Assembly: GCA_004322365.1 (NCBI GenBank)
Contig: SCTS01000006.1
Location: 160,756-224,755 of the forward strand
DNA length: 64,000 nucleotides
Reading direction: 5' to 3'
Source of the DNA: Patescibacteria group bacterium
GTDB lineage: Bacteria > Patescibacteriota > Minisyncoccia > Phycocordibacterales > Phycocordibacteraceae
Made by a program: the position numbers and the translations under genes. Below, piece after piece: positions 2,859 through 45,963 of the stretch (position 1 is its first letter; each line of letters starts with the position of its first letter). The notes below the pieces were generated by a model. That model did not search any database and had not been told where the DNA came from. It was given only the letters and a program-made list of their open reading frames with translations.

Positions 2859-2995
2859 TACGATAAGTATACCCTGTGAGATAATTTACTTCGATGAAGA
2901 TGCATACAGTAAAAAACACTTCGATTTTTTCTTAACTCCTTTAATTCAGATACTCCCACCACACCGAGGATTGGCGGTATTTAAAGTCTCTACCA

Positions 2996-3487: not shown

Positions 3488-3507
3488 AAGTTGAATCAAA
3501 TTTTAAA

Positions 3508-9618: not shown

Positions 9619-9620
9619 AT

Positions 9621-11787: not shown

Positions 11788-11873
11788 ACAGAGAAGTATA
11801 CCTCGTGAGATAACCCGCTAACACGAATTAAAAAATCCCCCAATTGGGGGATTTTTTAAAAAGGAAAAACTCT

Positions 11874-12326: not shown

Positions 12327-12344
12327 GGTTTTATGAATGGATTT

Positions 12345-13553
12345 TTAAATCGCAGCAGAAAGATTGTAAATCGGCACCAAGACCGATGCTAATAGTATAC
12401 CAACCCCTAAGCCTAGAGTAACAATCATAATTGGCTCAATAAGACCAACGAGTGTATCTACGCTCGTTGAAACCTCTCTTTGATAAAACTTCGCAAGGGT
12501 CTTTAAAATACTACCTAATTCACCCGTCTCTTCACCGACGCGCATCATCGCAACCATAATTCCAGGTACTTCTTTGCGTTTTTCGAGAGCCCCAGATACG
12601 GAGCCTCCTCCTTTCACTGAAGTTGCAACTTCTTGCAAAATATCTGCATAGACTGCATTGCCTACAACATTTGCTGTCACATCCACAGCTTGCACCACAG
12701 AAATACCCGACCCGAGCATCGTGGCAAGATTGTCAGCGATGCGCGATAGATAGAGCTTCTTGTACAAATCGCCCACATAGGGAATAGCGAGTTCAAACGA
12801 ACTGAACGATGCTCGTCCTTGAGGTGTACCTGCGTAGCGGAAAAGAAAGACACCTCCAACAACGAGAAGTATGAGAAGGAATATGCCGTAGTTCACAAAA
12901 AAGTTACTGATAGCTATGACTACCTGTGTGTACACGGGTATTGCTTGTCCTGCATCAATAAGAATTGAAGAAATACGTGGGATGACCATGGTCATCATAA
13001 GGATCATAACGACAAAGAATGTTGCTATAACAAACGCTGGGTAGATGAGTGCATTTTTTGCTTTACTCATCACTTCGTATGATCGATCAAGATAGTCAGC
13101 AAGATAGAGGAATGTCTCATCAAGCTTACCTGACTCTTCACCAGCCTTCACCATGTTCACATAAAATGCACTGAACACTTTTGGATGTTTTGAAAGCGCT
13201 TTAGATATTGGACTACCTGACTGAAGATCATCCCCTACCTCGGTCAAGACCCTACCCAAAAGAGGCTTCTCAGATTCTGACGCAAGGAGACGAAACACGC
13301 GAAGTGCGGAGACTTGTGCTTCAAACAATGTTGCGATTTGGCGTGACAATAAAACAATGTCGCGATTCGTAACACTTTCAAACAAAGTAATACCACCCAA
13401 GAAAGATTTTTTTTCAGGATCAGACTCTTCAATTGCTGAAATAGTGAGGGATCGACGCTGTAGTGAAGCAATGGCAACATCACGGGATATTGCATCAATG
13501 CTCCCTTCTTGCTTTGCTCCACTCGCATCAATTGCTTGGTATTTAAAGAGCAT
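12345..13553 (-). CDS. pilC: Type IV pilus assembly platform protein PilC (GspF family)
   Basis: 402 aa with two GspF-like repeats and three TM segments. Confidence 0.85.
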   Translation of the reverse strand: MLFKYQAIDASGAKQEGSIDAISRDVAIASLQRRSLTISAIEESDPEKKSFLGGITLFESVTNRDIVLLSRQIATLFEAQVSALRVFRLLASESEKPLLGRVLTEVGDDLQSGSPISKALSKHPKVFSAFYVNMVKAGEESGKLDETFLYLADYLDRSYEVMSKAKNALIYPAFVIATFFVVMILMMTMVIPRISSILIDAGQAIPVYTQVVIAISNFFVNYGIFLLILLVVGGVFLFRYAGTPQGRASFSSFELAIPYVGDLYKKLYLSRIADNLATMLGSGISVVQAVDVTANVVGNAVYADILQEVATSVKGGGSVSGALEKRKEVPGIMVAMMRVGEETGELGSILKTLAKFYQREVSTSVDTLVGLIEPIMIVTLGLGVGILLASVLVPIYNLSAAI

Positions 13554-13565
13554 ACAATCTATATA

Positions 13566-14627
13566 TTACATAAGGCGCGAAAATGCCTTAGGATTCCACG
13601 TTCTCGAAAGTGCATTCTCTGGCGTAACTTCTCCGCGACGTACCAAGTCCGCAAGACAGCGATTCATATCAATCATCCCCGACTCTGTACCTGTTTCAAT
13701 CACTGCATTAATTTCATGGGTACGCTTTTCACGGATAAGATTTGCCACTGCGTCATTATTAATCAAGAGCTCGTAGGCAGGAATGAGGCCTCCAGATATT
13801 CGTGGGACAAGTCTCTGTGAGAATATCCCTGCCAATGATGCAGCAAGTTGAAGACGAATTTGATCCTGCTGACCTGTTGGAAATGTATCGATAATGCGAT
13901 CAATAGTCTGAGCAGCATTGTTGGTGTGAAGCGTTGAAAGCACAAGGTGTCCAGTTTCAGCTGCGGTCACTGCTGCTGCCATGGTCTCAGGTCCACGCAT
14001 TTCCCCTACCATGAGCACATTAATGTCTTCACGGAACGCAGACAGAAGAGCCGCTTGAAATGTTTTAGTGTCGAGCCGCACCTCACGCTGATTGATAATT
14101 GAGTTTTTCGATGTGAACATGTATTCAATCGGATCCTCAATAGTAATAATGTGCTCAGTGCGTGTTTGATTTATTTTTTCCACCATTGATGCAAGTGTTG
14201 TTGATTTTCCTTGACCAACAGGACCTACAACCAAGAAGAAACCTTGTTGTAATTGGCAAAATGTCTCAAGAATTGGCGGTAACCCTAATTCTTCAAGTGA
14301 CTTAATCTCTTTCGGAATCAAACGGAGCGCAATGGACACTGTTCCTTGTTGAAAGAATGCATTGCCGCGAAACCTCATTTGATCTTTATACTGATACGAA
14401 AAATCTACCTCTTGATCTTGCTTAAATGATTGTAATTTTTCTGGTGGAATGAGTGCGCCCAAGATTCCGAGAGTGTCTTCAGGTGTATATTTTGCACGCT
14501 TCAAAAGTGGTATAAGCGTACCTGAAGTGCGAATGATTGGGTTAGAATTTGCAGTTACATGTAAATCGGATGCTCCTTCAGCAATAACAGTATCTATAAG
14601 CGACTCAAGTTCGGATTTGTATTCCAT
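13566..14627 (-). CDS. pilT: Twitching motility retraction ATPase PilT
   Basis: 353 aa with SDLHV, Walker A GPVGQGKSTTLASMV and Asp/His boxes. Confidence 0.85.
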   Translation of the reverse strand: MEYKSELESLIDTVIAEGASDLHVTANSNPIIRTSGTLIPLLKRAKYTPEDTLGILGALIPPEKLQSFKQDQEVDFSYQYKDQMRFRGNAFFQQGTVSIALRLIPKEIKSLEELGLPPILETFCQLQQGFFLVVGPVGQGKSTTLASMVEKINQTRTEHIITIEDPIEYMFTSKNSIINQREVRLDTKTFQAALLSAFREDINVLMVGEMRGPETMAAAVTAAETGHLVLSTLHTNNAAQTIDRIIDTFPTGQQDQIRLQLAASLAGIFSQRLVPRISGGLIPAYELLINNDAVANLIREKRTHEINAVIETGTESGMIDMNRCLADLVRRGEVTPENALSRTWNPKAFSRLM

Positions 14628-14629
14628 AA

Positions 14630-15031
14630 TTATGTAAGATGCGTCGCAGCAATTGCCAATGTTTTTTGCAAAACCTCAGAAGGTATCGAGCTTGCCTTAA
14701 TGATGTAGCCAGATGCACCAAACTTCAATCCTTTGTCTATGTCCTCCTGAAGGCCTTGATTGGTAAGCATGACAATTACTGCACCTTTCGCAAGATTTTC
14801 TTTTTTAATTATCTCCAAAAGCTCAAACCCTGATACCCCCGGCATGACAACATCAAGCAGAATAATGTTCGGCAAAAAACCTTTTCGCAGTTTTTCAAGG
14901 GCAAGATTAGGGTCTGGAATTGCTTCAACAGTATGCCCTTCGTTTTTAAATTTCAATGTATACATATCTAAAAGAAACCGATCGTCATCGACGAGAAGAA
15001 TGGAATAGTTTTTTTGAGTAGTTGGCTCCAT
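14630..15031 (-). CDS. Stand-alone CheY-like response regulator receiver protein
   Basis: 133 aa with ILLVDDD, a phospho-acceptor Asp (LLDVVMPGVSG) and a C-terminal conserved Lys. Embedded between pilB and pilT. Confidence 0.75.
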   Translation of the reverse strand: MEPTTQKNYSILLVDDDRFLLDMYTLKFKNEGHTVEAIPDPNLALEKLRKGFLPNIILLDVVMPGVSGFELLEIIKKENLAKGAVIVMLTNQGLQEDIDKGLKFGASGYIIKASSIPSEVLQKTLAIAATHLT

Positions 15032-15033
15032 AA

Positions 15034-16812
15034 TTACGGCAATTTTTCGTCGGCTTCCTCGTCTCGAAGAAGTTCACCGCCAAGGGTGTTCACTTCTTCG
15101 AAAGGAATAGTACCTTTGAGCATTTTCATAATAGCATCCTCTTTCATCGTAAACATGCCTTGTGCACGCGCTACTTTGTACAATTCATCTTCAATTGGGT
15201 TAGCAAGAATGGTGTGCTCTAGTTCAGGCGATGTAGGCAACATTTCAAACACCGCAACACGCCCACGAGTACCGTTAGCGCACGTTGGAGATGGAGCAAT
15301 CCCATAGACAGTTTTTGCTGCAGGAAGTTTTTTCTTAAATTCAGCAGGTATATCAGCGAATTCTTTTTCAATCATAGTAGCCACAGCACCCTCAAAAGGA
15401 ATAGGTTTACCAGCATCTTCACAGCGAAGCCGAACGAGTCTTTGTGCAATAGACAGAATAAGTGTTGGTGCAATCAAGTACGGGTCAACGCCCATGTCAA
15501 CAAGTCGGGGCACGATACCAATTGCATTATTAGTGTGGAGCGTGGTGAGAACTAGGTGTCCGGTGAGTGCTGCTTGAATGGCAAGCTGCGCTGTCTCTTT
15601 ATCGCGAATTTCTCCCACCATGATGATGTTAGGGTCTTGACGCAATATGGAACGCAGTCCCGACGCGAATGTATAGCCAATTTCTGGACGCACCTGTGAC
15701 TGCGACACACCGTCGATGTCATATTCTACTGGATCTTCAAGAGAGACAACATTCATTCCTTCACGATCAAGCTCCTGGAGCATCGCGTAGAGCGTCGTCG
15801 ATTTACCAGAACCTGTTGGACCAGAAATAACAATAATTCCATAGGGTTTTTTAATTGCTTTTCGAATCGTTTCAGAGTTTTCGTCCGTCAGTCCAATGTC
15901 ATTGAGTTTCTGTGTTTGAAGTCGACGATCCAAAATACGCATCACCACCTTTTCGCCGTGATAGGTTGGAAATGTTGATACACGAAAGTCTACGCGCCTG
16001 GCATCTATGGTTGCAGAAAAACGGCCATCTTGTGGTTTTCTTCTCTCGTCAAGCTTAAGGGATGAAAGCACCTTAATACGTGCAATAACAGAACGCTCTA
16101 GGTTTTTAGGTAATCTGAGCGACGTATAGAGCACGCCATCAACACGAAAACGGACCTTCAATTCCTCTCGCGTTGGTTCTATGTGAATGTCGGACGCCTT
16201 ACCGTCAACAGCATACCGAAGAATAGTTGCAACAATTTTTGTAACAGGAGCATCTTCTTTTATTTTGACATTTCCCTTTTCAGCATCAGTAAGTTTCTCG
16301 CTTGGTGCTTCTTCAAGAGCCACACTGAGTTCATCGTCATCTCTAGCAGTGCTTTGCAACTCCCCAAGTGCCTGCCCCACCTCACCAGAAAGACCTTTGT
16401 ACATTCCAATAATTTTGTCGAAGTCTTCATCGGAGATAAGAAATATCTTATACGGAACATTCGTACGCGAAGCAATGAAATTAAGGGCTTCTACTGCGTC
16501 AAGGTTATCTGGATCAGTAGTGCCAACCTCAAGCACACCATCGTTCAGCGCGAGGGGAGCGAAGCGGTAATGACGAGCAGATTCTTCTGGAATATAGTTC
16601 AGTACCGCAAAAGGGACGACGTCCTCACCAATCTCATGCGTTGGTACTGAGTAATACTCACCACGAGCACTAAGAATGTCACTTGCTGACACCCCCCTAT
16701 CTAAGAGGGCCTTCTCAAGAGTTTTGGAACTTGTTGCAATCTCCTCTTTAATACCCGCAAGAGCATTTTTATCAACGAGACCTTTCTCCGAGAGGAGGGA
16801 AAGAACATCCAT
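15034..16812 (-). CDS. pilB: Type IV pilus assembly ATPase PilB (GspE family)
   Basis: 592 aa. N-terminal GSPII_E_N-like domain and Walker A GPTGSGKSTTLYAML. Confidence 0.9.
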   Translation of the reverse strand: MDVLSLLSEKGLVDKNALAGIKEEIATSSKTLEKALLDRGVSASDILSARGEYYSVPTHEIGEDVVPFAVLNYIPEESARHYRFAPLALNDGVLEVGTTDPDNLDAVEALNFIASRTNVPYKIFLISDEDFDKIIGMYKGLSGEVGQALGELQSTARDDDELSVALEEAPSEKLTDAEKGNVKIKEDAPVTKIVATILRYAVDGKASDIHIEPTREELKVRFRVDGVLYTSLRLPKNLERSVIARIKVLSSLKLDERRKPQDGRFSATIDARRVDFRVSTFPTYHGEKVVMRILDRRLQTQKLNDIGLTDENSETIRKAIKKPYGIIVISGPTGSGKSTTLYAMLQELDREGMNVVSLEDPVEYDIDGVSQSQVRPEIGYTFASGLRSILRQDPNIIMVGEIRDKETAQLAIQAALTGHLVLTTLHTNNAIGIVPRLVDMGVDPYLIAPTLILSIAQRLVRLRCEDAGKPIPFEGAVATMIEKEFADIPAEFKKKLPAAKTVYGIAPSPTCANGTRGRVAVFEMLPTSPELEHTILANPIEDELYKVARAQGMFTMKEDAIMKMLKGTIPFEEVNTLGGELLRDEEADEKLP

Positions 16813-16816
16813 AGCG

Positions 16817-17155
16817 TTATCTCACTTGCGGAGTGAGCTGTTTAGCCCCCAGTGGAGCAAAGGGGTTGTTGCGTCCGACTGGTTCTTGTACGAGTTCTTG
16901 GCTAAAATCTTGTAAACTTTTAAAGGCAGGGTCTGAAAAAATAGCGTCATCGAGCTTAATTGATTTAAGCTGAAGAAGAATCGCTATAAGATCCTGATCG
17001 ACAGAAGGGACAGCTGACACTTCTTGTGCCGACAATACAGGCTCGGCTGGTTTCGCAAAGAAATATGAATATACAACAAAAGCAATGGCGATTACGAGTA
17101 CCACTATAATGACCGTTTTGAATTTTTTAAATAAATCAATCATGGTTTGAGCCAA
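16817..17155 (-). CDS. Small membrane-anchored pilus-operon protein (possibly PilP-like)
   Basis: 112 aa with an N-terminal TM. Position-based inference. Confidence 0.4.
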   Translation of the reverse strand: MAQTMIDLFKKFKTVIIVVLVIAIAFVVYSYFFAKPAEPVLSAQEVSAVPSVDQDLIAILLQLKSIKLDDAIFSDPAFKSLQDFSQELVQEPVGRNNPFAPLGAKQLTPQVR

Positions 17156-17682
17156 TAGGTTTTAATATGGAAGGTGAATTCGTAAATACCTGTCTCATTT
17201 GCAGTGAAAGAAAGACCTACCACATCCACAAGACGCAGACTCTTCTCTAGATCAGCAAGGTATTGTCTGAATGTATCGTAAGAACCACTGACATTGAAAG
17301 ACAAAATAACGGACTCGTAGGTCTTCTCATCAGGGCCTATCTGCCCCCTACTGACTCGCTCTTTCGGAGTTTCAATAACTACATTTCTGACACGCATACC
17401 GTATTTGGTCGCCATGCTATCAAAATCAAGTATGAGTCGTACATTATCAACATGGTCGGGCACCAGTTTCTGTAGACGAGCTAAATCTATCTGGGGAAAT
17501 GTGTTGTAGCGACTCAAGAGTTGATCACGAACATCTTGAAGCTCTCTAGAGCGCGACAGTGCAGCATCAAATTGCGCTTGTTCAGCTAACGAATCTTGGA
17601 GACCGAGATATGTTGGATTTATATACCAAAAAAATATTGCGCCAGCGAGACCTAGAAAAAGAATTGGGGTAAAAAGTTTCAT
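17140..17682 (-). CDS. PilO-like pilus assembly protein
   Basis: 180 aa with an N-terminal TM followed by a coiled coil, in operon context. Confidence 0.55.
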   Translation of the reverse strand: MKLFTPILFLGLAGAIFFWYINPTYLGLQDSLAEQAQFDAALSRSRELQDVRDQLLSRYNTFPQIDLARLQKLVPDHVDNVRLILDFDSMATKYGMRVRNVVIETPKERVSRGQIGPDEKTYESVILSFNVSGSYDTFRQYLADLEKSLRLVDVVGLSFTANETGIYEFTFHIKTYWLKP

Positions 17683-18320
17683 ATTCCTTGTGGTGATGTT
17701 GGTGGCACACTTGTAGGTAAAGCTTCAGTGGGAGCCGCACTCACTCCCGTGTACCCTATACGAGTCGTATCAATGACTGCCGTGAACTCAAACAGTATGC
17801 TGCCAGTCTTCGATATATTCACATTTGAGAACACTGGGTCGGTAATGATACTACTCTTACTAAATGCATCTGACTGGAGTGCAACCGCGTTAAAACTAGC
17901 TGCTTCACCAGATGCTGAGAGTAGAGTTCTGGTTGGGTCTGCGATGTCATAAGAAAAATTACTAAATCGTACATTGGTCAGCATAAGCTTCTCAAGTTCA
18001 TCAAAAAGTTGTGAGAGAGCCGTGTGATTTTTAAGAAGAGTACTCCCTGCTGCAATCCTTGTATCAAGGCGCGAAAGTTCTTTTATGGTTGCAGGTTCAA
18101 AGGCTGCACGCGAACGCTCCAAAGATTGACGTTTACTTTCAACTGACTGTATTAAATATTTTTCAAAACCAAAAATACCACCTGCAGAAAGAATCGTCAC
18201 AATAAGAATTGCGCCAGCAATTATGTTTACAAGTGCAACAGGGTTTGCTCGTTTGGCTTCAGTGCGTTCAACTTTGAGCGCAGCCTTAGGTATAAAAGAT
18301 GTCGTGACACGATCGTCCAT
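17679..18320 (-). CDS. PilN-like pilus assembly protein
   Basis: 213 aa with a short cytoplasmic N-terminus, a TM and a periplasmic coiled coil, directly downstream of pilM. Confidence 0.55.
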   Translation of the reverse strand: MDDRVTTSFIPKAALKVERTEAKRANPVALVNIIAGAILIVTILSAGGIFGFEKYLIQSVESKRQSLERSRAAFEPATIKELSRLDTRIAAGSTLLKNHTALSQLFDELEKLMLTNVRFSNFSYDIADPTRTLLSASGEAASFNAVALQSDAFSKSSIITDPVFSNVNISKTGSILFEFTAVIDTTRIGYTGVSAAPTEALPTSVPPTSPQGI

Positions 18321-18344
18321 GTGGAAAGTGTAACATCTTAAAAA

Positions 18345-18428
18345 AGCTGCCAGCTTTCAGCTGCCAGCTTTCAGTGGAAATTACTAAATTCTTAAAGCTG
18401 AAACCTGACAGCCGACACCTGAAAGCTA
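18345..18428. repeat. Heptamer-based repeat block (AGCTGCC/AGCTTTC alternating, then GCTGAAA/CCTGACA/CCTGAAA) in the pilM-pilN intergenic region
   Basis: Sequence agctgccagctttcagctgccagctttcag...aagctgaaacctgacagccgacacctgaaagct. Forms a 114-nt spacer inside the pilus operon. Confidence 0.8.
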
Positions 18429-18434
18429 ATTAAG

Positions 18435-19574
18435 TTACTGATGCAACGCACGAAGTGCGAGTCCAACAGCAGAAGCAAATGATGGGCCAGCGCCTTTGAG
18501 TACGTCAGAGATAAACGCGGGTGCAGCTAATTTTTCAAACGGAGAAGCAATGACAATCCGTGCATCAAAAGAACGCGAAGCTATCTCCTTCAAGCCTTTC
18601 AAAGAAGCTCCTCCTCCTACAAGAACTACTTGCGACACCGCCTTCCCTTCTTTGCGTTGGTACGTCAACAAAATACGACGAGCTTCAGCAAATATGAAAT
18701 CAAGCGCCGCAGATCCCACCTCAGATTCGGACAAGCCTTTATCCCTTTTTATATTTTCAGCCTCTTGAAATGTAGCGCCCATTGACTTTGCCAACGAGAG
18801 CGTTAAATCTTGTCCACCACGACCTATGGTGTGTGAAACATCGATAATGCCAAATTCAATAATATATACACGGGTCGATGATGCTCCCATATCAATAATC
18901 ATTGCAGGCGCAGTGGTATGTTCATAGGAAGCTCGCCCCATGCTAAATGGCTCTACCTCAAAAAATCGCGGAGTGATAGCGGCAGCTTCTGTAACAAGCT
19001 GATATTTAGCAAGGACTGCGTTGTGAATCGCGACAAGAAGCACATCGGTTGAGTGATCTGATTTTGGAACGCCACCTTGTGGACTCAAAAATTTTGCTTC
19101 TTCCTCAGGTATCACAAACCAGTCGAGCGCCACTTCTGTAATTGGCACAGGAATATATTTGCGAGCCTCTATTGGAATCATAGTTGCCAAATCGGCATGA
19201 TCTTTTGTAGGGAGCGTGATGACATTAATGAGACTTCCAGAAAGTGGTACCGAGAATCCGCCAATTTTTGCTGTCACGTTTGCCTCACGGAGCACGTCTT
19301 TCAAGGCTTCCCCAATTTTTTCAGGTGGAGGCATCACCGATTGCCCTACTTCGGCATTTGCATATGGGCCGAGTGCAATCTCCCCGTAGGTCTCCAATAC
19401 CGCACTCCCCTTCACCTCCTTTACCTGCACAATTTTAATGGATGAAGTCCCAATGTCCACCCCAAGAACACTCTCGCCATCTTTCACACTAAAAGATGAA
19501 GCGAGCTGTTTAAATTTTTCAGACAGTGTGCTGAGGGAGAAATCCATACGAGAGACTACGAACGCTGGGTACAA
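18435..19574 (-). CDS. pilM: Type IV pilus assembly protein PilM (actin-like ATPase)
   Basis: 379 aa with LGVDIGTSSIKIV and an FtsA/PilM fold signature. Confidence 0.8.
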   Translation of the reverse strand: MYPAFVVSRMDFSLSTLSEKFKQLASSFSVKDGESVLGVDIGTSSIKIVQVKEVKGSAVLETYGEIALGPYANAEVGQSVMPPPEKIGEALKDVLREANVTAKIGGFSVPLSGSLINVITLPTKDHADLATMIPIEARKYIPVPITEVALDWFVIPEEEAKFLSPQGGVPKSDHSTDVLLVAIHNAVLAKYQLVTEAAAITPRFFEVEPFSMGRASYEHTTAPAMIIDMGASSTRVYIIEFGIIDVSHTIGRGGQDLTLSLAKSMGATFQEAENIKRDKGLSESEVGSAALDFIFAEARRILLTYQRKEGKAVSQVVLVGGGASLKGLKEIASRSFDARIVIASPFEKLAAPAFISDVLKGAGPSFASAVGLALRALHQ

Positions 19575-20375: not shown

Positions 20376-20422
20376 CTAGAACCTAGAACCTAGAACCTAG
20401 AACCTAGAACCTAGAACCTGAA
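20375..20422. repeat. Heptanucleotide tandem repeat (CCTAGAA) x6 plus a CCTGAAT variant
   Basis: Perfect 7-mer array between the convergent genes comFC and ORF 20423-21262. Confidence 0.9.
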
Positions 20423-30677: not shown

Positions 30678-30831
30678 AAACTAGAGAGTGTGCTCGCCAA
30701 AAAAGCACCTGCCGCACGTTTTTCCTGACTCTGAGACATCCCTCTTGCAACTACACATACAACTACACACAAACGCACCCGCTTCGTGTCTCGATACGCC
30801 TACATATTTCTCAGAACGTAGTTTCATATAG

Positions 30832-30904
30832 TCCACCCTCTTGGACTCGAACCAAGGACCCTCGAGGTATAAGCTCGATGCTCTAACCAACTGAGCTAAG
30901 GGTG
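30832..30904 (-). tRNA. tRNA-Ile (anticodon UAU)
   Basis: Manual fold of 73 nt: acceptor CCACCCT/AGGGTGG, D-arm GCTC-AGTTGGTTA-GAGC, anticodon arm TCGAG-CTTATAC-CTCGA, T-arm CTTGG-TTCGAGT-CCAAG, discriminator A. Confidence 0.7.
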
Positions 30905-30939
30905 GATATCCGCACTATATATCCTCAAGTGCGAATAAA

Positions 30940-36688: not shown

Positions 36689-37699
36689 ATGAACACTAAA
36701 TCAAACACAGAATCTATGGGAGAAAACGGTGAACATCGTGAGGGGAAACGAATAGAGCGAGCTGAAATAAAAATGCTTGGCCCTATAAGCTATATAGCTC
36801 CACACGAAGGGCTATGGACTGGCTCAATATCAAGAAAAGCCCACCAATCTGAACGAGTAACAGGGGCATTGCAAGAAATACCCCATTATTTTGTGATGGC
36901 TGATACTGATGCCCCTGAGCGCTGCATTGATGGTCGTCCTAAAGTAAAAAAAGGTGCGCGTGGTCATCTACAAGAAATGCACCTTGGTCCTCAGACTCCC
37001 GGAGGCACTCCCGCAATGACATTGGCATACAGAATCATGAATGCTGGGACACTCCCTGAAGGAAAGAAGTTTTGTGACGATTTGAAAGACACTATAGGCC
37101 TCTGTAAAAAACACGGAATATCCTTTGGTGGCCACATTGATGACCATAACCATGGGTTCAACTGTGGGTGCGGTGCAATTGATAAAATCCCAGAAATATT
37201 CAAGAAGATACTTGAGCCAGAGTTCAAAGAATCGGCTTCTGTATATTTGAAGGCAATTCTTGGGGAGCGATTTGACGCAGATGTTATGCAGAGCTTAATA
37301 GGGCGTGCCGATGAGTTAAATGCGCAAAACGGTAACTATCTTGAACAAACAGCAGATGGTGATTATCTCTTCAGAAAAAAAGTGATTGAGACCCTTGAAA
37401 CGGAAGCAACAAATGTACAGCCAGTAGAAGAATTAATAGGAGACCACCGCGAGATTGCATTGGTCGTAAACTTGGTTCCTGGTAGCACGTTCGACAGGGA
37501 TGCGTTTACAAAAGCACAGGGTTCTGAGGTACAAGCGTTTAACTATGACTTCTGGGTGAGTGAAGATTTTGCAAATAAACTATTCAAAAGTGAGAAAAAA
37601 CGTACCGAATTCCTTACTATCCGAGCCATGCTTGGAATTGCTACAGCTATGGTGCTCACAGACGGTTCAATGGAGCTCATTCTCCGCACAAAAAAATAG
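36689..37699 (+). CDS. Hypothetical protein with Cys/His-rich putative metal-binding motifs
   Basis: 336 aa with CIDGRP, HLGPQTPGGTP and HIDDHNHGFNCGCGAID. No confident family assignment. Confidence 0.5.
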   Translation: MNTKSNTESMGENGEHREGKRIERAEIKMLGPISYIAPHEGLWTGSISRKAHQSERVTGALQEIPHYFVMADTDAPERCIDGRPKVKKGARGHLQEMHLGPQTPGGTPAMTLAYRIMNAGTLPEGKKFCDDLKDTIGLCKKHGISFGGHIDDHNHGFNCGCGAIDKIPEIFKKILEPEFKESASVYLKAILGERFDADVMQSLIGRADELNAQNGNYLEQTADGDYLFRKKVIETLETEATNVQPVEELIGDHREIALVVNLVPGSTFDRDAFTKAQGSEVQAFNYDFWVSEDFANKLFKSEKKRTEFLTIRAMLGIATAMVLTDGSMELILRTKK

Positions 37700-40565: not shown

Positions 40566-40600
40566 GGAAGCTGGAAGCTGGAAGCTGGAAGCTGGAAGCT
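40566..40600. repeat. Heptanucleotide tandem repeat (GGAAGCT) x5 abutting the ndk stop codon
   Basis: Sequence ggaagctggaagctggaagctggaagctggaagct. The last unit overlaps the stop codon of ndk (cta at 40599-40601). Confidence 0.9.
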
Positions 40601-41210
40601 ACTCCATTATTCCATCCAAGTTCACATCGTAAAGAATCTGTTCCTGCACAATACGATACTTCAAAATCTCTTCAGGCTTAAACCACACAGCAATTTCGCG
40701 TGATGCTTCTTCAGGACTTTCAGAACAATGAACGAGGTTTCTAACAGCACGACTCTGTACCGATGAGTGGTCGTACGAGTCCACAGTGTAGTCACCGCGG
40801 ATAGTACCCACATCCGATGTCTTTGGTTCTGTGGCACCTACAAGCTTCTTCACAACGGCTACTGATTCATTCCCTTCAACAACCATCATGAGTACAGGAC
40901 CTGCGGTCATGAATTTCACTATTGAATCTATTATTTCTTTACCATACCCAAGCGCATCCTTCTCTATTGGCAAGTTATGAGTTGTTCGGTCATTCAATAT
41001 TCGAGTTCCTTTCTCAAGAAACCACTTTTCGTCCTTGTTGTAATGACGGACAAGTTGGTCCTCTGTCGCAAGTCCAAATTTAAACGCAACAAATTTCAAC
41101 CCTGTTCTCTCTATACGCTTCATTATCTCTCCGATAAGAGAACGCTGTACTGCGTCAGGCTTCAATATAATAAGCGTACGCTCATTTTCAAATTGTGCAT
41201 TTGTATTCAT
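40599..41210 (-). CDS. ndk: Nucleoside diphosphate kinase (long form with insertions)
   Basis: 203 aa with TLIILKPDAVQR and a catalytic His region. Confidence 0.8.
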   Translation of the reverse strand: MNTNAQFENERTLIILKPDAVQRSLIGEIMKRIERTGLKFVAFKFGLATEDQLVRHYNKDEKWFLEKGTRILNDRTTHNLPIEKDALGYGKEIIDSIVKFMTAGPVLMMVVEGNESVAVVKKLVGATEPKTSDVGTIRGDYTVDSYDHSSVQSRAVRNLVHCSESPEEASREIAVWFKPEEILKYRIVQEQILYDVNLDGIME

Positions 41211-41264
41211 TGAGGCGACTATACCACTCTACGGCGCGAAGCGCCACAGAGCAGGTGCTAGGTA

Positions 41265-41330
41265 TTAGGTTATAGGTGCTAGCTTTTCTGATTCTGAATT
41301 TAAAGCTAGAACCTAGCACCTATAACCTAA
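41265..41330. repeat. 18-bp inverted repeat built from degenerate heptamer units, with a 30-nt loop
   Basis: Arms ttaggttataggtgctag and ctagcacctataacctaa. The right arm reads as gctagaa cctagca cctataa cctaaat. Lies between the stop of ORF 41361-44246 and the ndk start. Confidence 0.8.
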
Positions 41331-41360
41331 ATGATCCCTGCGGATCCGACGAAGCGTCGC

Positions 41361-44246
41361 CTACGGCTTTTGGTTCTCTCGCATCTGATTATACTTCTGG
41401 TGGATATCAGCCTCCACAGCTTCGCGGGCTCGGCCGTAGCGTTGATACGAAATCTGCTTCAATGCATCAATGTTCAAGAAGTCGCCAGGGGTAAACGGAA
41501 TAGTCTCAATAGTAAAACCAGGGGTAGGCTTTCCTCCAGCAAGAAGCTTTAAATATGAATGGAAGTTGTCAATTTTTAGGAAGTCGGAAACCTCAAAGCC
41601 TGGAAACTGTTTCGCAATATACTCAGCATCATCGGGGCCTACACGAAACACTGCCATGGTGCCAACGTTACCAAATACTGAATCCTTAATTTTTGGAAGG
41701 AGCTGAGAAATATACTGGTGTGCCATCGTCATAGAGAGACGGAATTTGCGTGCTTCTGAGAGGATTGTGGAAATAGTATCGGTCGTAATATTTTGGAACT
41801 CGTCAATGTAGAGATAGAAGTTCGGAGGATTCAAATGCAAATACTCCGTACGCGCAAGTGCGGTCATCATAATTTTGCCCACAATCACAAGACCAATCAA
41901 GTTTGCGTTTACATCACCCAGTCGGCCTTTAGACAGGTTTACAAGAAGGATTTTCTTGTTGTCCATAATATCTTTGAAATTAAAAGCGGAGCGTTGCTGT
42001 CCGATGATCGGACGCATAATTTCGTTCGCAATGAAGATATCGAATTTTGATGTGATGTACGGCACCACATTGCGCAAATCTCCTTCTCCACGCACATTTT
42101 CTGCAATATCTTCCCAGAAGTGCGTTACCACGGGATTTTTACAGCGAGACAACTTCAATGCGCGGAATTCATCGTCAGCCAAAACACGGGAAATATCCAT
42201 CAAGGTCGAGCCAGTATCAGGATCTTCAAGCACGAGCATTGTGGCATTACGGAAGTACTGCTCAAAGATAGGACCGAAGGCTTCCGGCACATCGCCGTAG
42301 AGTTTCTTAAAAATTTTAAACATCTCATCCACCACGAATGTTTTTTGCTCTGGAAAGCGTGGATCATACTCAAGCATGTTGAGTCCCATGGGGCGTGCAG
42401 TATAGGCAGGATCAAAATAAATAAGATCATCAATGCGGTCTTTGGGAATACGGGAAAGAATCTCCAATACATCCACACCGTGCGGGTCAATGAAACACAC
42501 CCCTTCCCCATTCTCAATGTCCTGAATGATCATATTCTTCAGGAAGTTCGTCTTACCAGTACCGGTTTGTCCAATGGTATACATGTGGCGCAGACGGTCA
42601 TCTGGAGTGAAATGAATTGGTGTTGCAATATTTGAGTAACGATTAATGCCGATGACAATGCCTTTCTCAGGAAGCCCTGGTGGTGCAGGAGCGAGCTTAG
42701 CACTTGCAGTTTTTGCTTCACGAGATGCTGTACCTCCTGCAATAGTGAGATGAAAAATAGTTGAGAGCTCTGCCAAATTCATCGGCATGAGTGGAATCTT
42801 ATGCATCAAAGGTGTTGGGGCAGCCTTGCGTGTCCATTCAAGCCACAGCTGATAGAAAAATCCTTCATGTGCTTGGCGATCAAACATGCGGAAGATGAAC
42901 AGACGGAGAAACTCCCGCAATTCCTTTCTACCTTTTATATGCTTAAACCGAAGGCGGTTTGCTTTCGCATCTTCATACTGCCCAAAAGTATTTTCAAGTT
43001 CCGTCAAAATTGCCATTGCCCTCTCTTTGGTGCGAGCAGACGCAACAATACGCAAATTCACTCCCACAATGACACTCTTGAGCTTTTTTGACACTGCGTC
43101 AGCTGCAAAAGAATCAATATTCTTACTATCATCCTTCTTTTTTTCTTCAGAGCTTTCCAAAAAACTAGTGAAGCCTTTGTTCAATCCCTGAAAAAATCGA
43201 CGCATTGGTGAGTAATGCTCCATATACATATTCTTTCTGAATATGTCATTTGCAGAACCTTTACCTTTGTTGAGCTCATCCAACACATAACGAATACGCT
43301 TGGAATGGTAATCACCTGCGGGAGCAACGGTAATTTGAAGCGCAGCCCCCTCACCTTCTTTAGTGATTTTTGAAAGTGCTGCGAGCGTCACATTCATAGG
43401 GTCGTGACTAAACTCTTCTGATGTCTTCAAAGGAATTGGTGGCGGGCGCTGGTAGTAGGCGGACGCCGCAACAGTCACACCAAATTGGTTAAAAAGATTG
43501 TAGTCATCTTTTTTTTCAACAATACGTGCACGGGGAAACATGGCAAAAATCTGCTTTTCAAATGTTTCACGTTTTGCTCGAGGGACTGACAAATAAAAGA
43601 CTGCTTCCTCTTTAGTGTGCGAAACAGCAATTTCCATTGTGAAATGCTGGAGGTGAATCTTTTTGCGCTTGTGCCAATCTTTCAAGAAAATTGTATCGGG
43701 GAGAGCAACAAAAGGAATCATACTCAAATAAAACTGCTCCATCTGCATGCAAACATCCTTAAGAGACCCTCCTGGTTTCCCTGGGGCAGCTTCAGGTACG
43801 GCTATATCCAAGAGAACAAAATCAAGAGCCACAGCGAGCGGATCGTTAGCGCTCAGCCCTGGAATTGGATGTCCAGCTGTCCGGTATTGCACAAGCAGGC
43901 GATGAAAATCATCTTCGAGGTGAGGATTATCAATGCGATCAAGCTCCTTCATGACAGCCTTGAATCCTTGAGTATGCAAAATACCCAACAACTCCTCCAT
44001 GTCTTTGTCGTTCGAGTCAGGTGTAAGTTCAAGAATGATGCCCTGCTTCTGCTCTTGCTCTACCCCCTCTGGTGCCTCCGAAAGTGTAGGGAGAACAGAC
44101 GCTTCGACAGGTAAGGCCGGATCTCCTCGATGTCCCCTTCCCCCTCCACCCGAGCGCGCGGTCTCACGCAACTTCGTCAGTTGATGCTCAGGCGAAAGTT
44201 TCGCTGCTTTTGTATCAATTCCTTTATTAGGATTAAACCCTGGCAT
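41361..44246 (-). CDS. Large protein with C-terminal TraD/VirD4/HerA-FtsK-like P-loop ATPase domain and an uncharacterised roughly 540-aa N-terminal region
   Basis: 961 aa with Walker A TIGQTGTGKTNFLKN, followed by CFIDPHGVD and a Walker B-like LYIDEFQN. The N-terminal half is acidic and coiled with no known motif. Copy 2 of the 24-nt motif overlaps its stop codon. Confidence 0.6.
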   Translation of the reverse strand: MPGFNPNKGIDTKAAKLSPEHQLTKLRETARSGGGGRGHRGDPALPVEASVLPTLSEAPEGVEQEQKQGIILELTPDSNDKDMEELLGILHTQGFKAVMKELDRIDNPHLEDDFHRLLVQYRTAGHPIPGLSANDPLAVALDFVLLDIAVPEAAPGKPGGSLKDVCMQMEQFYLSMIPFVALPDTIFLKDWHKRKKIHLQHFTMEIAVSHTKEEAVFYLSVPRAKRETFEKQIFAMFPRARIVEKKDDYNLFNQFGVTVAASAYYQRPPPIPLKTSEEFSHDPMNVTLAALSKITKEGEGAALQITVAPAGDYHSKRIRYVLDELNKGKGSANDIFRKNMYMEHYSPMRRFFQGLNKGFTSFLESSEEKKKDDSKNIDSFAADAVSKKLKSVIVGVNLRIVASARTKERAMAILTELENTFGQYEDAKANRLRFKHIKGRKELREFLRLFIFRMFDRQAHEGFFYQLWLEWTRKAAPTPLMHKIPLMPMNLAELSTIFHLTIAGGTASREAKTASAKLAPAPPGLPEKGIVIGINRYSNIATPIHFTPDDRLRHMYTIGQTGTGKTNFLKNMIIQDIENGEGVCFIDPHGVDVLEILSRIPKDRIDDLIYFDPAYTARPMGLNMLEYDPRFPEQKTFVVDEMFKIFKKLYGDVPEAFGPIFEQYFRNATMLVLEDPDTGSTLMDISRVLADDEFRALKLSRCKNPVVTHFWEDIAENVRGEGDLRNVVPYITSKFDIFIANEIMRPIIGQQRSAFNFKDIMDNKKILLVNLSKGRLGDVNANLIGLVIVGKIMMTALARTEYLHLNPPNFYLYIDEFQNITTDTISTILSEARKFRLSMTMAHQYISQLLPKIKDSVFGNVGTMAVFRVGPDDAEYIAKQFPGFEVSDFLKIDNFHSYLKLLAGGKPTPGFTIETIPFTPGDFLNIDALKQISYQRYGRAREAVEADIHQKYNQMRENQKP

Positions 44247-44314: not shown

Positions 44315-44866
44315 TTACGGAACATCAGAACCCAAGATCCGCACTACCTCAAATGCACCGCGAGCGATAGATGAACCATCTTTCCCTACTGATAGTGGTG
44401 CTTTTTTCAAAACTAACCTACCTTGTTCTTCAAAGACTCCAATTTCAGTACCTGCAGTCTCAAACCAACACGCCAGTCCAGCTTTTTCACCTTCCAAAAG
44501 TGGCCACTCTGGAACACCTATTTCTGCGCATGAACCCTCATATGTCCCGACGGAGGATTCTTTACCATTAAGAGAAAGCGATACAGTAGCGAGTGACGCA
44601 CCGGCACGGCTTTTACTGCCTGAATCACTCACAATCCAGTTGTACACAGGAACCTCGCATGGAGTAAACTCACATGCTGGACCTGCTCGCCCAACAGTGC
44701 TCCCATCTGGACAGATTTTCGCTTCCTCAGTACACGCACTCGTATGTGGCACAACAATGGTGGGGGTACGGACAAAAAAGAACCAAGCACTGATGACCCC
44801 AACACATATAACAACACTAAAGAAAGCCCACTGAGACTTTGTCGACATCACACTAGTGTACCTCAA
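44315..44866 (-). CDS. Small Cys-rich membrane-anchored protein (paralog B of 5847-6377)
   Basis: 183 aa with a TM helix, then EAKICPDGSTVGRAGPACEFTPC ... GTYEGSC ... GEKAGLACW ... GTEIGVFEEQGRLVLKK. Confidence 0.6.
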   Translation of the reverse strand: MRYTSVMSTKSQWAFFSVVICVGVISAWFFFVRTPTIVVPHTSACTEEAKICPDGSTVGRAGPACEFTPCEVPVYNWIVSDSGSKSRAGASLATVSLSLNGKESSVGTYEGSCAEIGVPEWPLLEGEKAGLACWFETAGTEIGVFEEQGRLVLKKAPLSVGKDGSSIARGAFEVVRILGSDVP

Positions 44867-44876
44867 ATAGAGAATA

Positions 44877-44906
44877 CAAAAAAAGGCGCCGTCGGCGCCT
44901 TTTAGG
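44877..44906. terminator. Hairpin terminator (GGCGCC-GTC-GGCGCC flanked by A/T runs)
   Basis: Sequence aaaaaaaggcgccgtcggcgccttttagg. Confidence 0.55.
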
Positions 44907-45008: not shown

Positions 45009-45185
45009 TCATGTCTTTACTATTACCTTCCTCCCATGACAGACACTGCATATAAGCGACATATGTTGCCATTCACCATTTTGTTTTCTGTATCCGCGCT
45101 CTTCAGTACCCCATCCATTACAACGATGACATTTTTCTTCAGTAGAATTCAAAAACACCTCTCTTCCTAAACCTTTAAAAACCAT
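45009..45185 (-). CDS. Small zinc-ribbon protein, hypothetical
   Basis: CHRCNGWG...CSVCHGRK (Cx2C...Cx2H). The ORF track extends it to 45299, which would overlap map. Trimmed to the internal ATG at 45185. Confidence 0.4.
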   Translation of the reverse strand: MVFKGLGREVFLNSTEEKCHRCNGWGTEERGYRKQNGEWQHMSLICSVCHGRKVIVKT

Positions 45186-45198
45186 ACAATTTCTTACT

Positions 45199-45963
45199 CT
45201 AAAGTTCTGTAAGAATTTGATGGCCATTCTCAGTGATGAGAATAGTGTGTTCAAAATGCGCAGCACGCGAACCATCTTTAGTAACAAATGTATATCCATC
45301 CTTCAAGAGCTTCACACGAGGAGTACCCTCCGTAAACATGGGCTCAATTGCAATAACGAGTCCCGGGGTTAATTGTGCTCCAGTACCAGCGTCCCCAACA
45401 TTCGGCACATACGGCTCTTCATGAACAGAATTCCCCACTCCGTGTCCCCCAAGTTCAAAGACGATGCCGTAGCCTCGCATAACACCAACAGCTTCAATGG
45501 CAGCGCTTATGTCTCCAATATACCCACCTGGTTTTGCCATTTTAATACCCGCCATGAGAGCTTCCTCTGTGGCCTCCAATAAGGCTTCTGCACCTACATC
45601 GCCTTTCCCTGCGATAACAGTAAGTGCGCTATCCACAAGAAGACCCTTATGCGTTAAAACACAATCAAGCCCCACAACATCGCCCTCTTTGATAATGCTC
45701 GGGTTTTCGTTCGGAATCCCGTGCACCACTTCATCGTTAATTGAAATACAGATGGTCGCAGGGTACGGGCGCGTTGCCCCCCGTGGAGTGTAACCAACCA
45801 ACGATGGTACATCGCCGAAGTCTCGAATCATTTTCTCTGCAAGAGTGTTGAGAGTATCGGTTGATACACCTGGGGTCACTGCGCCCCCTACAGCTTTCAA
45901 GACTTCCGCAAGATGTCTTCCGCCTTCCCTAAGAATTGGAATATCTTTTTTTGTTGCAATCAT
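45199..45963 (-). CDS. map: Methionine aminopeptidase type I
   Basis: 254 aa with the pita-bread fold, conserved metal ligands (D, D, H, E, E) and HGIPN. Confidence 0.9.
   Translation of the reverse strand: MIATKKDIPILREGGRHLAEVLKAVGGAVTPGVSTDTLNTLAEKMIRDFGDVPSLVGYTPRGATRPYPATICISINDEVVHGIPNENPSIIKEGDVVGLDCVLTHKGLLVDSALTVIAGKGDVGAEALLEATEEALMAGIKMAKPGGYIGDISAAIEAVGVMRGYGIVFELGGHGVGNSVHEEPYVPNVGDAGTGAQLTPGLVIAIEPMFTEGTPRVKLLKDGYTFVTKDGSRAAHFEHTILITENGHQILTEL

Follow-up and report, generated by a model that had tools for sequence, protein, structure and literature searches.

Gene and Domain Architecture

What does a motor resembling the coupling proteins of conjugation do in a chromosomal locus of housekeeping genes? 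The question is raised by a long ORF on the minus strand of a 64,000-nucleotide stretch of a Patescibacteria contig, referred to below as the window. The preliminary description of this DNA had reported a 961-aa protein with a Gly/Arg-rich start and three ATPase motifs; the ORF was found at 41361–44246, the Gly/Arg-rich stretch is RSGGGGRGHRGD, and the three motifs are located at aa 557–571 (TIGQTGTGKTNFLKN), 584–592 (CFIDPHGVD) and 812–819 (LYIDEFQN). This Paceibacteria (CPR) ORF is a genuine and strongly conserved gene, since more than 300 full-length homologues, 46–98% identical to the 961-aa protein, were found, and the Walker A and Walker B columns are invariant, together with many further columns, in an alignment of 30 sequences (A1). 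The gene and its parts are as follows.

41361–44246, minus strand: whole gene, DUF8128/T4CP-like ATPase; ATG start, 961 aa and stop
44022–44246, minus strand: aa 1–75, low-complexity, predicted disordered region with the RGG-like motif at aa 31–42; pLDDT <50 in both models
43842–44021, minus strand: aa 76–135, three-helix module with the conserved motif NPH(I/L)EDDFHR; helices at 80–93, 95–105 and 108–123, pLDDT ~90
42747–43841, minus strand: aa 136–500, alpha/beta DUF8128 core with a predicted VirB4-NTD-like fold, ending in the conserved MNLxELxTxxH
42660–42746, minus strand: aa 501–529, Ser/Ala/Pro-rich linker; low pLDDT at aa 505–517
41361–42659, minus strand: aa 530–961 and stop, T4CP (VirD4/TrwB/TraD)-like P-loop motor whose two Walker motifs are separated by a predicted helical insert; family and structure matches, very high conservation
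42549–42572, minus strand: Walker A, GQTGTGKT, aa 559–566; G559, Q560, T561, G562, G564 and K565 invariant in A1
42477–42488, minus strand: DPHG motif, aa 587–590, invariant; aligned to TrwB, with which the DPxG motif is shared (DPNG)
41799–41816, minus strand: Walker B, YLYIDE, aa 811–816; D815 and E816 invariant in A1

The P-loop motor at aa 530–961 falls in the HerA/VirB4/VirD4 group and, judged by sequence, is closest to the coupling proteins (TrwB/TraD), in line with the TraD/VirD4-type ATPase of the HerA-FtsK superfamily first proposed for these C-terminal ~430 aa. Matches to the Pfam families PF10412 (TrwB_AAD_bind; 23.5 bits, gathering cut-off 20.5) and PF02534 (T4SS-DNA_transf; 22.6 bits, cut-off 20.1) exceed their thresholds, PF12696 (TraG-D_C) falls just below (21.8, cut-off 22), and the TraD model TIGR03743 is matched with an E-value of 7.8e-15; all NCBIfam TraD/VirD4 models score far under their equivalog cut-offs, e.g., 54 vs. 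366 bits. The homologues carry NCBI names that fall in the T4CP family. A search of the PDB with the A1 profile matched TrwB (E 3.7e-4), and hhalign aligned the profile with TrwB over 72 columns, from Walker A through DPxG (probability 93.5%), vs. 29 columns of the Walker A region alone for TrwK. The Walker A, DPxG, Walker B and AHQ motifs are all intact and invariant. The insert between the Walker motifs, which is spanned by the PF02534 alignment, comprises ~245 aa of mostly helical prediction, with pLDDT <50 over much of aa 620–754.

The N-terminal half had been characterised as acidic and as having no recognisable domain, and neither statement is upheld: aa 1–130 carry a net charge of about −6 but aa 131–500 one of +11, and aa 136–500 form the DUF8128 core. 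PF26449 (DUF8128) is a precomputed annotation of homologues from 98% to 47% identity, and the literature search found no paper that mentions PF26449 or DUF8128; the phage family phrog_5156 matches aa 200–960 with an E-value of 8.3e-73. The modelled N-domain (pTM 0.71, core pLDDT 80–95) was compared with BFVD using Foldseek, which returned gp156 of phage G (2.7e-15), the VirB4-like gp155 of the same phage (2.9e-6) and a ‘component of type IV transporter system’ (1.8e-3). A VirB4-NTD-like fold is predicted for the core. The N-domain profile (A2) matched neither PDB sequences nor gp155, and the A1 profile aligned with TrwK over the P-loop alone, with nothing from the N-domain, so the relationship to the VirB4 N-terminal domain rests on fold comparison.

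Ahead of the core, aa 1–75 are poorly conserved, and homologues of the 47–50% identity group have a coiled-coil-like segment there instead. The three-helix module contains invariant residues (D80, L90, G94, H109, D113 and L118 in A1) and sits where relatives of ~800 aa have a transmembrane (TM) anchor. No TM helix was predicted in the 961-aa protein, the maximum 19-residue Kyte–Doolittle mean being 1.7 and located inside the ATPase core, and the first 60 aa of 76 full-length orthologues (from 80 species-genome loci) contain no segment at TM level.

Genomic Context and Distribution

Relatives are encoded in at least 566 species genomes, and all named genomes among them belong to Patescibacteria/Paceibacteria. 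The gene has a conserved partner on either side, map and ndk, with a hairpin on its downstream side.

45199–45963, minus strand: map, methionine aminopeptidase, upstream synteny partner, last gene of the secY-adk-map block; Peptidase_M24 in orthologous loci
40599–41210, minus strand: ndk, nucleoside diphosphate kinase, downstream synteny partner; Pfam NDK E 4e-40
41253–41330, no strand assigned: inverted repeat/hairpin between the stop codon and ndk; 21-nt arms at 41265–41285 and 41310–41330, 95% complementary, 24-nt loop

Of 55 loci, 41 have a same-strand map upstream and 40 a same-strand ndk downstream, the latter at a median gap of 116 nt. The order secY-adk-map-[gene]-ndk is kept in ~75% of the loci with enough flanking sequence, across species diverged to ~45% identity, and the wider context includes secY, gmk/cmk, adk, map, ndk and a gene for a beta-CASP/RNase J-like nuclease; small, variable genes interrupt the interval from map to the DUF8128 gene, and no neighbour is common to the ~25% of loci that depart from the map-ndk context. 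Divergence of the gene correlates with that of SecY (rho 0.62) and Map (rho 0.76). No relatives of the N-domain were found among 72,556 plasmids or on IMG/VR viral contigs. The DUF8128 ATPase gene is a vertically inherited Paceibacteria core gene located between map and ndk. The preliminary description had named, as a finding that would speak against its reading, an FtsK/SpoIIIE-type N-terminal region combined with conserved housekeeping synteny; the synteny is indeed present, but the N-terminus is not FtsK-like.

Several features of the immediate surroundings noticed earlier were recovered, including the inverted repeat that follows the gene and a repeated 24-nt motif that overlaps its stop codon (41341–41364) and has a second copy at 10900–10923, where chance would give none. 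The gene is also preceded by a Cys-rich ORF of 183 aa (44315–44866; seven Cys, N-terminal TM segment) with a paralogue at 5856–6299 (46.7% identity). The suggestion that this small protein is a co-occurring partner was rejected, since among the 80 species-genome loci its homologues occur only in the three closest relatives (L008, L009 and L011); the ORF directly upstream in locus L004 is unrelated to it. A link to competence was dismissed as well: the sole pilus- or competence-type genes of the window form a type IV pilus cluster at 8.5–19.6 kb, ~22 kb from the gene and beyond housekeeping genes, and this cluster is not conserved near the orthologues. Neither the surroundings of the gene in the window nor any of the Paceibacteria loci examined yielded a type IV secretion system (T4SS) gene, and this includes virB3, virB6 and virB8, sought in the window and in the orthologous loci; relaxase and mating-pair-formation genes are absent from the flanks of the window gene and of loci L001–L005.

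Phage, Plasmid and Membrane-Anchored Relatives

Homologues in phages have a different neighbourhood. The phage G gene for gp156, the N-terminus of which is matched by the N-domain profile with 81% probability, adjoins the genes for the VirB4-like gp155 (P-loop_TraG, 1.6e-15) and the VirB6/TrbL-like gp153 (TrbL_4, 1.8e-11). In SPP1-type phages, genes for two small membrane proteins are followed by that of a DUF8128-type homologue, and one of these small proteins gives weak, near full-length matches to TrbC/VirB2 (E 0.0027 and 0.086). Most T4SS-like neighbours of the relatives show weak similarities, below Pfam cut-offs, the exceptions being the TrbL_4 and P-loop_TraG matches of phage G. By analogy, the phage relatives located beside VirB2-, VirB6- and VirB4-like genes point to a T4SS-type function. 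The SPP1 counterpart, gp32, has no TM segment, like the 961-aa protein (PMC6316719); it has been reported as a non-essential Bacillus phage ATPase of unassigned role. A literature search on VirB4-like phage ATPases found nothing relevant.

Two plasmid homologues of the motor have different architectures. The best plasmid homologue of the motor, encoded among CHAT and TPR genes of a Bradyrhizobium plasmid, has an N-terminus that the A2 profile misses, and in the haloarchaeal (Natrinema) homologue the motor is N-terminal and is followed by a long C-terminal extension.

Each of the nine ~800-aa relatives examined has one N-terminal TM helix. Of five loci with genes of this TM type, three have dnaX next to the gene and two an FtsQ-like POTRA_1 gene nearby, and one TM-type gene is followed by a gene for a T4SS_pilin-domain protein (E 1.2e-5). 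An HMM of the three-helix module, together with hhalign, detected stand-alone small ORFs adjoining or near TM-type genes in two of the five loci; the small ORFs upstream of L006 and L090 encode acidic, helical products missed by this HMM, and the idea that the module was split or fused therefore has support in only two of the five loci.

Possible Function

The 961-aa ATPase probably powers a type-IV-secretion-like apparatus. There is, in our estimation, about an even chance that it is a cytoplasmic, ring-forming translocation ATPase of the VirB4/VirD4 branch with a hybrid architecture, serving the chromosomal, relaxase-less T4SS of Patescibacteria as its second ATPase, one of the coupling type. 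The N-terminal domain of VirB4 holds the tails of VirB3 and VirB8 in T4SSs, and by analogy the VirB4-like domain would be a docking and oligomerisation scaffold, while the fused three-helix module may stand in for the membrane anchor by binding the membrane or a partner protein. The hexameric motor would then hydrolyse ATP to move its macromolecular cargo, be it protein, pilin or DNA, into or through an envelope machine encoded elsewhere in the genome, putatively the Patescibacteria T4SS. Genomes of Patescibacteria carry ~2 homologues of the VirD4 type each, most of them distant from virB4 (PMC12102498), located away from T4SS genes and having no assigned role (PMC12102498, PMC10633639), and the T4SS of Saccharibacteria is essential, yet its cluster lacks a recognisable coupling protein or relaxase (PMC12102498, PMC10633639). 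Against the T4SS assignment stand the lack of nearby T4SS genes in the loci examined, the weakness of most T4SS-like matches around the relatives, and the non-essential nature of SPP1 gp32. In Southlakia, moreover, a T4CP homologue (of the DUF8128 type or another) was reported to be non-essential, the T4SS being essential, and the phage homologues invoked by analogy are distant, with ~22–26% identity in the motor.

A bolder reading, which we regard as unlikely, is that the protein is both the missing coupling-type ATPase of the chromosomal, relaxase-less Patescibacteria T4SS, a system that epibiotic growth requires, and a surviving VirB4–VirD4 evolutionary intermediate, with a VirB4-type N-domain and a VirD4-type motor in one polypeptide. 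If that were so, coupling proteins would have arisen from a VirB4-like ancestor by loss of the N-domain and gain of a membrane anchor, and a small partner protein, fused to the motor in Paceibacteria, would have taken the place of the anchor, giving a soluble, recruitable motor.

Independence of any T4SS is assumed in another explanation, a housekeeping nucleic-acid translocase acting either as an FtsK-like chromosome motor at division or as an importer of DNA or RNA for degradation and re-phosphorylation, and we give it a low probability. Canonical T4CPs and FtsK are DNA translocases, and the import variant is considered because CPR bacteria are not known to synthesise nucleotides de novo. 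The conserved core context with its nucleotide kinase and nuclease genes, the proximity of TM-type relatives to dnaX and the FtsQ-like gene, and the RGG-like N-terminus of the close clade all agree with a translocase; however, secY followed by adk-map is a standard bacterial gene order, and the adk-map context is therefore uninformative in this respect. The RGG-like region is not kept in the 47–50% identity group, a DNA-binding domain was sought in the 961-aa protein and none was detected, the hallmarks of FtsK are missing (see below), and the comEC-dependent competence of Saccharibacteria requires no such motor. The idea that the protein replaces FtsK was not retained, FtsK itself having been reported in Saccharibacteria.

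It is improbable that the protein is instead the VirB4 of the organism, a very divergent orthologue energising T4SS assembly and pilin extraction and not of the coupling type. VirB4 likewise has an N-domain ahead of a RecA-like C-domain, and relatives are associated with VirB2/pilin-like genes, but VirB4 family models match nothing beyond the P-loop, the profile alignment is much longer with TrwB than with TrwK, phage G has, adjoining its DUF8128 homologue, a distinct protein recognisable as VirB4-like, and virB4 genes of Patescibacteria have been reported alongside TrsD, VirB3, VirB6 and VirB8, which is not the case here. A role in defence, or an origin in an integrated mobile element such as a phage, an ICE or a plasmid remnant, also suggested initially, is very improbable and largely refuted, since weak PADLOC matches, the CHAT and TPR neighbours of the Bradyrhizobium homologue, the Bacillus phage homologues and the variable small genes after map are set against the position kept in most loci, divergence that follows SecY and Map, an N-domain missing from plasmids and viral contigs, the lack of any conserved adjoining integrase, relaxase or effector gene in orthologous loci, an unremarkable GC content (0.44–0.45) and a motor extremely conserved, unlike typical defence genes.

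Returning to the proposed ATPase of a type-IV-secretion-like apparatus, Patescibacteria depend on other cells, and a formerly anonymous hypothetical protein becomes a testable candidate for energising transport at the host interface, because it combines vertical inheritance as a core gene, a VirB4-like putative docking domain without a membrane anchor, and phage relatives inside miniature T4SS-like gene sets. The modelling also offers a predicted structural assignment for DUF8128 and for the unexplained phage proteins SPP1 gp32 and phrog_5156, and the architecture has a bearing on the divergence of VirB4 and VirD4.

Comparison with Known ATPase Families

In the MADS defence system, a mad8-like ATPase is encoded with other mad genes; the PADLOC search gave a weak mad8 match (E 7.9e-11, 40 bits) and weak matches to HerA and DndH, but the identified flanking genes are housekeeping genes and none is a defence gene. 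HerA possesses a HAS-barrel and has NurA, Sir2 or DUF4297 as a partner, neither of which was found in the protein or at its locus, and the Pfam DUF87 match covers the P-loop only and is below cut-off. FtsK/SpoIIIE proteins have alpha and gamma (KOPS-binding) domains and a polytopic, four-TM N-terminus, all missing from the 961-aa protein, and PF01580 (FtsK_SpoIIIE) matched the Walker A region alone (E 0.026, below cut-off).

VirB4 (TrwK of R388, PDB code 7o42; VirB4-CTD, 4ag5) shares its two-domain plan with the 961-aa protein, which, on its predicted fold, has a VirB4-type N-terminal domain. Sequence similarity is confined to the P-loop: none of the VirB4 models (CagE_TrbE_VirB, AAA_10, TIGR/NF VirB4) matches beyond it, no Pfam VirB4 model is matched at E <= 0.1, and the sole match, to NF045975 (E 9.7e-4), lies in this region. 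VirB4 is encoded with VirB3, VirB6 and VirB8, unlike the gene described here.

The T4CPs (VirD4/TrwB/TraD/TraG; PF02534, PF10412 and PF12696) have in common with the motor the order of Walker A, DPxG, an insert predicted here as mostly helical, Walker B and a TraG-D_C-like AHQ region, as well as a nucleotide-binding domain of HerA-FtsK type bearing both Walker motifs. T4CPs, however, have an N-terminal transmembrane domain anchoring the hexamer, whereas the motor of the 961-aa protein is preceded by a ~370-aa VirB4-NTD-like domain and the three-helix module, and its gene is a chromosomal, vertically inherited core gene unlinked to relaxase or T4SS genes.

The phage proteins SPP1 gp32, phage G gp156 and phrog_5156 consist of a DUF8128-type N-domain and a motor, as does the 961-aa protein, but they lack the disordered region and the helical module, are phage-borne and non-essential, and are flanked by VirB2-, VirB6- and VirB4-like genes. 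The TM-anchored DUF8128 ATPases (~790–840 aa, from other CPR-like contigs), with dnaX, FtsQ-like POTRA and T4SS_pilin contexts unlike the map-ndk locus, carry one N-terminal TM helix where the 961-aa protein has a soluble extension, and share with it the same N-domain and motor.

C-terminal motor and conservation of the gene

Translation confirmed the gene, and the three motifs quoted in the preliminary description were found at aa 557–571, 584–592 and 812–819. The positions of the Walker motifs were checked by translation:

41361–44246, minus strand: ATPase gene, ATG start, 961 aa
42549–42572, in the ATPase gene: Walker A
41799–41816, in the ATPase gene: Walker B

Over 300 homologues emerged from a search of 5.8 billion proteins; the 120 best of them are full length and 46–98% identical. 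The window belongs to a MAG of Candidatus Paceibacterota, and contig JBBAAE010000001.1 encodes a 100% match to the N-terminal 530 aa. Walker A, DPHG, Walker B, AHQ and about 200 further columns are invariant in a 30-sequence alignment, and the ORF is a real gene.

The TraD/VirD4/HerA-FtsK-like ATPase expected in the C-terminal part was borne out by Pfam, NCBIfam, PDB-profile and hhalign matches, which place the motor (aa 530–961) in the HerA/VirB4/VirD4 group, with coupling proteins as its closest kin by sequence. TrwB_AAD_bind and T4SS-DNA_transf exceeded their Pfam gathering scores, TraG-D_C was slightly under its own, and DUF87 and FtsK_SpoIIIE matched the P-loop only; the NCBIfam TraD model TIGR03743 reached an E-value of 7.8e-15, yet far under the family cut-off. 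The ATPase family profile found the R388 coupling protein TrwB among PDB sequences (E 3.7e-4), and in hhalign 72 columns aligned with TrwB, beginning at Walker A and running past DPxG (93.5% probability), versus 29 columns around the P-loop only for TrwK, the R388 VirB4. Fold comparison alone cannot tell HerA, VirB4 and VirD4 proteins apart, partly because the helical insert that separates the two Walker motifs is poorly modelled. A tblastn search revealed motor relatives in 377 plasmid records of bacteria and haloarchaea (best identity 32.6%), annotated as T4SS DNA-binding or TraM-recognition proteins; two thirds of these records are non-mobilisable plasmids.

Predicted fold of the N-terminal half

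The N-terminal half had been described as having no recognisable domain, which was refuted by precomputed Pfam matches of the ATPase homologues to PF26449 (DUF8128 in the contig tables); our Pfam scan was empty for this half because the scanned copy was without PF26449. An AlphaFold model of aa 1–530, built on a 16-sequence alignment, had a pTM of 0.71 and pLDDT of 80–95 across most of aa 80–500; both structural models used here come from shallow alignments (16 and 30 sequences). In this model aa 1–75 are disordered, aa 80–123 form a three-helix unit, and the remainder is an alpha/beta domain of ferredoxin-like units. It is supported by Foldseek searches of the N-domain (DUF8128 core, aa 136–500) against viral models, which found phage JL (7.2e-16) and phage G gp156 (2.7e-15). 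Phage G gp155, which is VirB4-like, was matched too (2.9e-6), as was a 'component of type IV transporter system' (1.8e-3). The N-domain is of VirB4-NTD-like predicted fold, a kinship that none of the sequence-level methods applied detected, and this model-based placing of DUF8128 in the fold of the VirB4 N-domain appears to be new.

Anchored and anchorless forms

The profile of the N-terminal half matched 2,037 proteins with E ≤ 1e-3 (1,098 with E ≤ 1e-10) among 1.84 billion representative proteins. They come in two size forms, one of about 900–1,000 aa and one of about 790–840 aa, where the match starts from profile position ~130–197. A single strongly hydrophobic N-terminal helix (Kyte-Doolittle 1.9–3.2) was present in nine of the nine shorter proteins examined, and no such helix was found in the ATPase or in 76 full-length orthologues from species genomes. 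Since the short forms examined begin with a TM helix and the Paceibacteria forms do without it, the ~130-aa N-terminal extension of the latter takes the position of the membrane anchor.

Five loci that encode TM-anchored relatives, with 445 stop-to-stop ORFs in all, were searched with an HMM of the three-helix module (aa 76–135, NPH-x-EDDFHR). It matched exactly two small ORFs, one directly upstream of the ATPase gene in L007 (E 6.5e-4, with hhalign in agreement) and the other 5 kb from the ATPase gene in L089 (E 2.4e-4). These small ORFs, found in two of the five loci, modestly suggest that the Paceibacteria ATPase gained a small partner protein by fusion. The contrast between a form with an anchor and one without, the latter possibly carrying a fused partner module, appears to be new. 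The TM-anchored relatives adjoin dnaX in three of the five loci (L006, L007 and L090); an FtsQ-like POTRA_1 gene and a PMT-type glycosyltransferase lie upstream of them in two.

Genomic context and inheritance

The synteny sample comprised 80 loci from GTDB species genomes, and counts were made on the 55 whose flank spans 3 kb or more. Of these 55, 41 have map upstream in the same orientation and 40 have ndk downstream (median gap 116 nt); the remaining loci of the sample have no neighbour in common. The order of the ribosomal spc operon, secY, (gmk/cmk), adk, map, ATPase, ndk, (DUF2238) and a beta-CASP nuclease, with rplT-rpmI-infC beyond it on the opposite strand, is found again in complete CPR genomes of ~0.7 Mb at 58–60% identity and is also kept at 47–48%. 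Such strict housekeeping synteny in Paceibacteria appears to be new. The divergence of the ATPase from the window copy correlates with the divergence of the housekeeping proteins at the same loci, with rho 0.62 for SecY and 0.76 for Map; the correlation between SecY and Map is similar (rho 0.65). No relative of the N-domain was found on 72,556 plasmids or in IMG/VR viral contigs, and GC content is unremarkable. The ATPase gene is a vertically inherited core gene and not a part of a mobile or defence island. One species-genome contig (L030) carries two copies of it, of 926 aa (1168–3948) and 693 aa (at the contig end).

The surroundings of the gene in the window are as follows:

45199–45963: map, flanking the ATPase gene
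45009–45299, minus strand: small ORF with two CxxC pairs and weak DnaJ_CXXCXGXG and Anti-TRAP matches
44881–44903, minus strand: terminator-like hairpin AAAAGGCGCCGACGGCGCCTTTT, then a T-run, between the map region and the 183-aa ORF
44315–44866, minus strand: Cys-rich 183-aa ORF
5847–6377, minus strand: its paralogue (46.7% identity), placed at 5856–6299 within this stretch
41341–41364: 24-nt motif GTAGGCGACGCTTCGTCGGATCCG, overlapping the ATPase stop codon
41253–41330: intergenic hairpin of AGGTGCT/AGGTTAT-type heptamers, 21-nt arms, 24-nt loop
40599–41210: ndk, flanking the ATPase gene on the other side

Two small lineage-specific ORFs and the terminator-like hairpin are inserted after map in the window. 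The hairpin suggests that in this genome secY-adk-map and the ATPase gene are not transcribed together, unlike in orthologues with a gap of less than 50 nt after map. The ORF with two CxxC pairs overlaps the map 3' end in a different frame and is present only in L008 and L009, two of the closest relatives. The Cys-rich small protein and its paralogue, the inverted repeat between the stop codon and ndk, and the overlap of the stop codon with a repeated motif, all noted earlier, were confirmed. Each of the two paralogues combines a TM segment at its N-terminus with a Cys-rich body (the 183-aa copy has 7 Cys), and neither has a Pfam, NCBIfam, PADLOC or PHROG match. Their homologues are confined to the closest relatives, L008, L009 and L011. 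The sequence AGGTGCTAGGT, with up to one mismatch allowed, has 8 matches versus 0.6 expected; tandem AGGTTCT heptamers related to those of the hairpin (at least five copies) lie at 20381–20419. The second copy of the 24-nt motif (10900–10923, two mismatches, none expected by chance) lies close to the 5' end of the gene for prepilin peptidase.

Further features of the window are:

8519–19574: complete type IV pilus cluster with PilM, PilB with an MshEN domain, a receiver-domain protein, PilT, PilC, PilD and three pilins with the N-methylation motif
30831–30905, minus strand: tRNA-Ile, anticodon TAT (UAU), called by ARAGORN
36689–37699, plus strand: 336-aa protein with a cadmium carbonic anhydrase repeat (CDCA; E 4e-7, slightly above cut-off), a type unusual for a CPR genome
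56056–59079, minus strand: 1007-aa protein with PKD and CARDB domains, amid ribosomal-protein genes

The pilus cluster is unlinked to the ATPase gene, and the link to competence machinery proposed previously was not supported.

Relatives beside T4SS-type genes

PHROGs family 5156, with no function assigned there, matches aa 200–960 (E 8.3e-73), and 47 phage records have tblastn matches to the motor, almost all of them from Bacillus-group phages, including SPP1, GBK2, phage G and 0105phi7-2. SPP1 gp32 (836 aa) is non-essential and has no TM segments, its C-terminus has HHpred matches to TrwB, VirB4 and FtsK, and a translocon made up of gp32 and the membrane proteins gp31.1 and gp31.2 was proposed by its authors (PMC6316719). 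Two small membrane proteins are encoded directly upstream of the gp32 homologue in SPP1-type phages; in those examined they are members of phrog_5422 and phrog_20592, and the phrog_5422 member shows weak, nearly full-length similarity to TrbC/VirB2 pilin (E 0.0027 and 0.086). Phage G (L092) has a miniature T4SS-like set of gp153, the small protein gp154, gp155 and the DUF8128-type ATPase gp156. Here gp153 is TrbL/VirB6-like (TrbL_4 1.8e-11, above cut-off), gp155 is a recognisable VirB4-like ATPase (P-loop_TraG 1.6e-15, AAA_10), and the gp156 N-terminus matches the N-domain profile with 81% probability; a DUF8128-type ATPase here occupies the coupling-protein position beside a separate VirB4. 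In a CPR-like contig, a TM-anchored homologue is directly followed by a 673-aa secreted protein with an embedded T4SS_pilin domain (E 1.2e-5). These three independent neighbourhoods put the ATPase family beside T4SS-type membrane parts; those of the phage relatives appear to be new as T4SS-like neighbourhoods.

Possible function and comparison with known systems

The P-loop motor is intact, invariant and coupling-protein-like, a VirB4-NTD-like predicted fold precedes it, the anchor is absent, and the gene behaves as a core gene; confidence is high for the domain assignment and for a functional ATPase. The N-domain may dock the motor onto membrane partners, with the fused helical module standing in for the TM anchor, and ATP hydrolysis would drive a substrate, be it protein, pilin or DNA, through a T4SS-like machine whose genes lie elsewhere. 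Confidence in this T4SS-linked role, taken as a whole, is middling. It is consistent with the VirD4-type homologues of Patescibacteria, about two per genome and mostly away from virB4 (148 of 5,713 near it), for which exaptation was suggested (PMC12102498), and with an essential Saccharibacteria T4SS cluster without a recognisable coupling protein or relaxase (PMC10633639).

A T4SS-independent nucleic-acid translocase, which would fit the nucleotide kinases and nuclease of the neighbourhood and the dnaX and FtsQ-like neighbours of the TM-type relatives, seems unlikely. That the protein is the organism's own divergent VirB4 is more doubtful still; it fails sequence membership of VirB4, as of FtsK and HerA. 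A part in a defence or mobile system, as first suggested, is highly improbable in view of the housekeeping synteny, the SecY/Map-like divergence and the lack of relatives on plasmids and in IMG/VR.

The ATPase is a member of DUF8128 and phrog_5156, families that are catalogued but uncharacterised, and a literature search found no paper on either. Compared with T4CPs, it would act as a coupling-type ATPase, yet it is without two of their defining traits: it has no TM anchor, and its gene is not linked to relaxase or T4SS genes.
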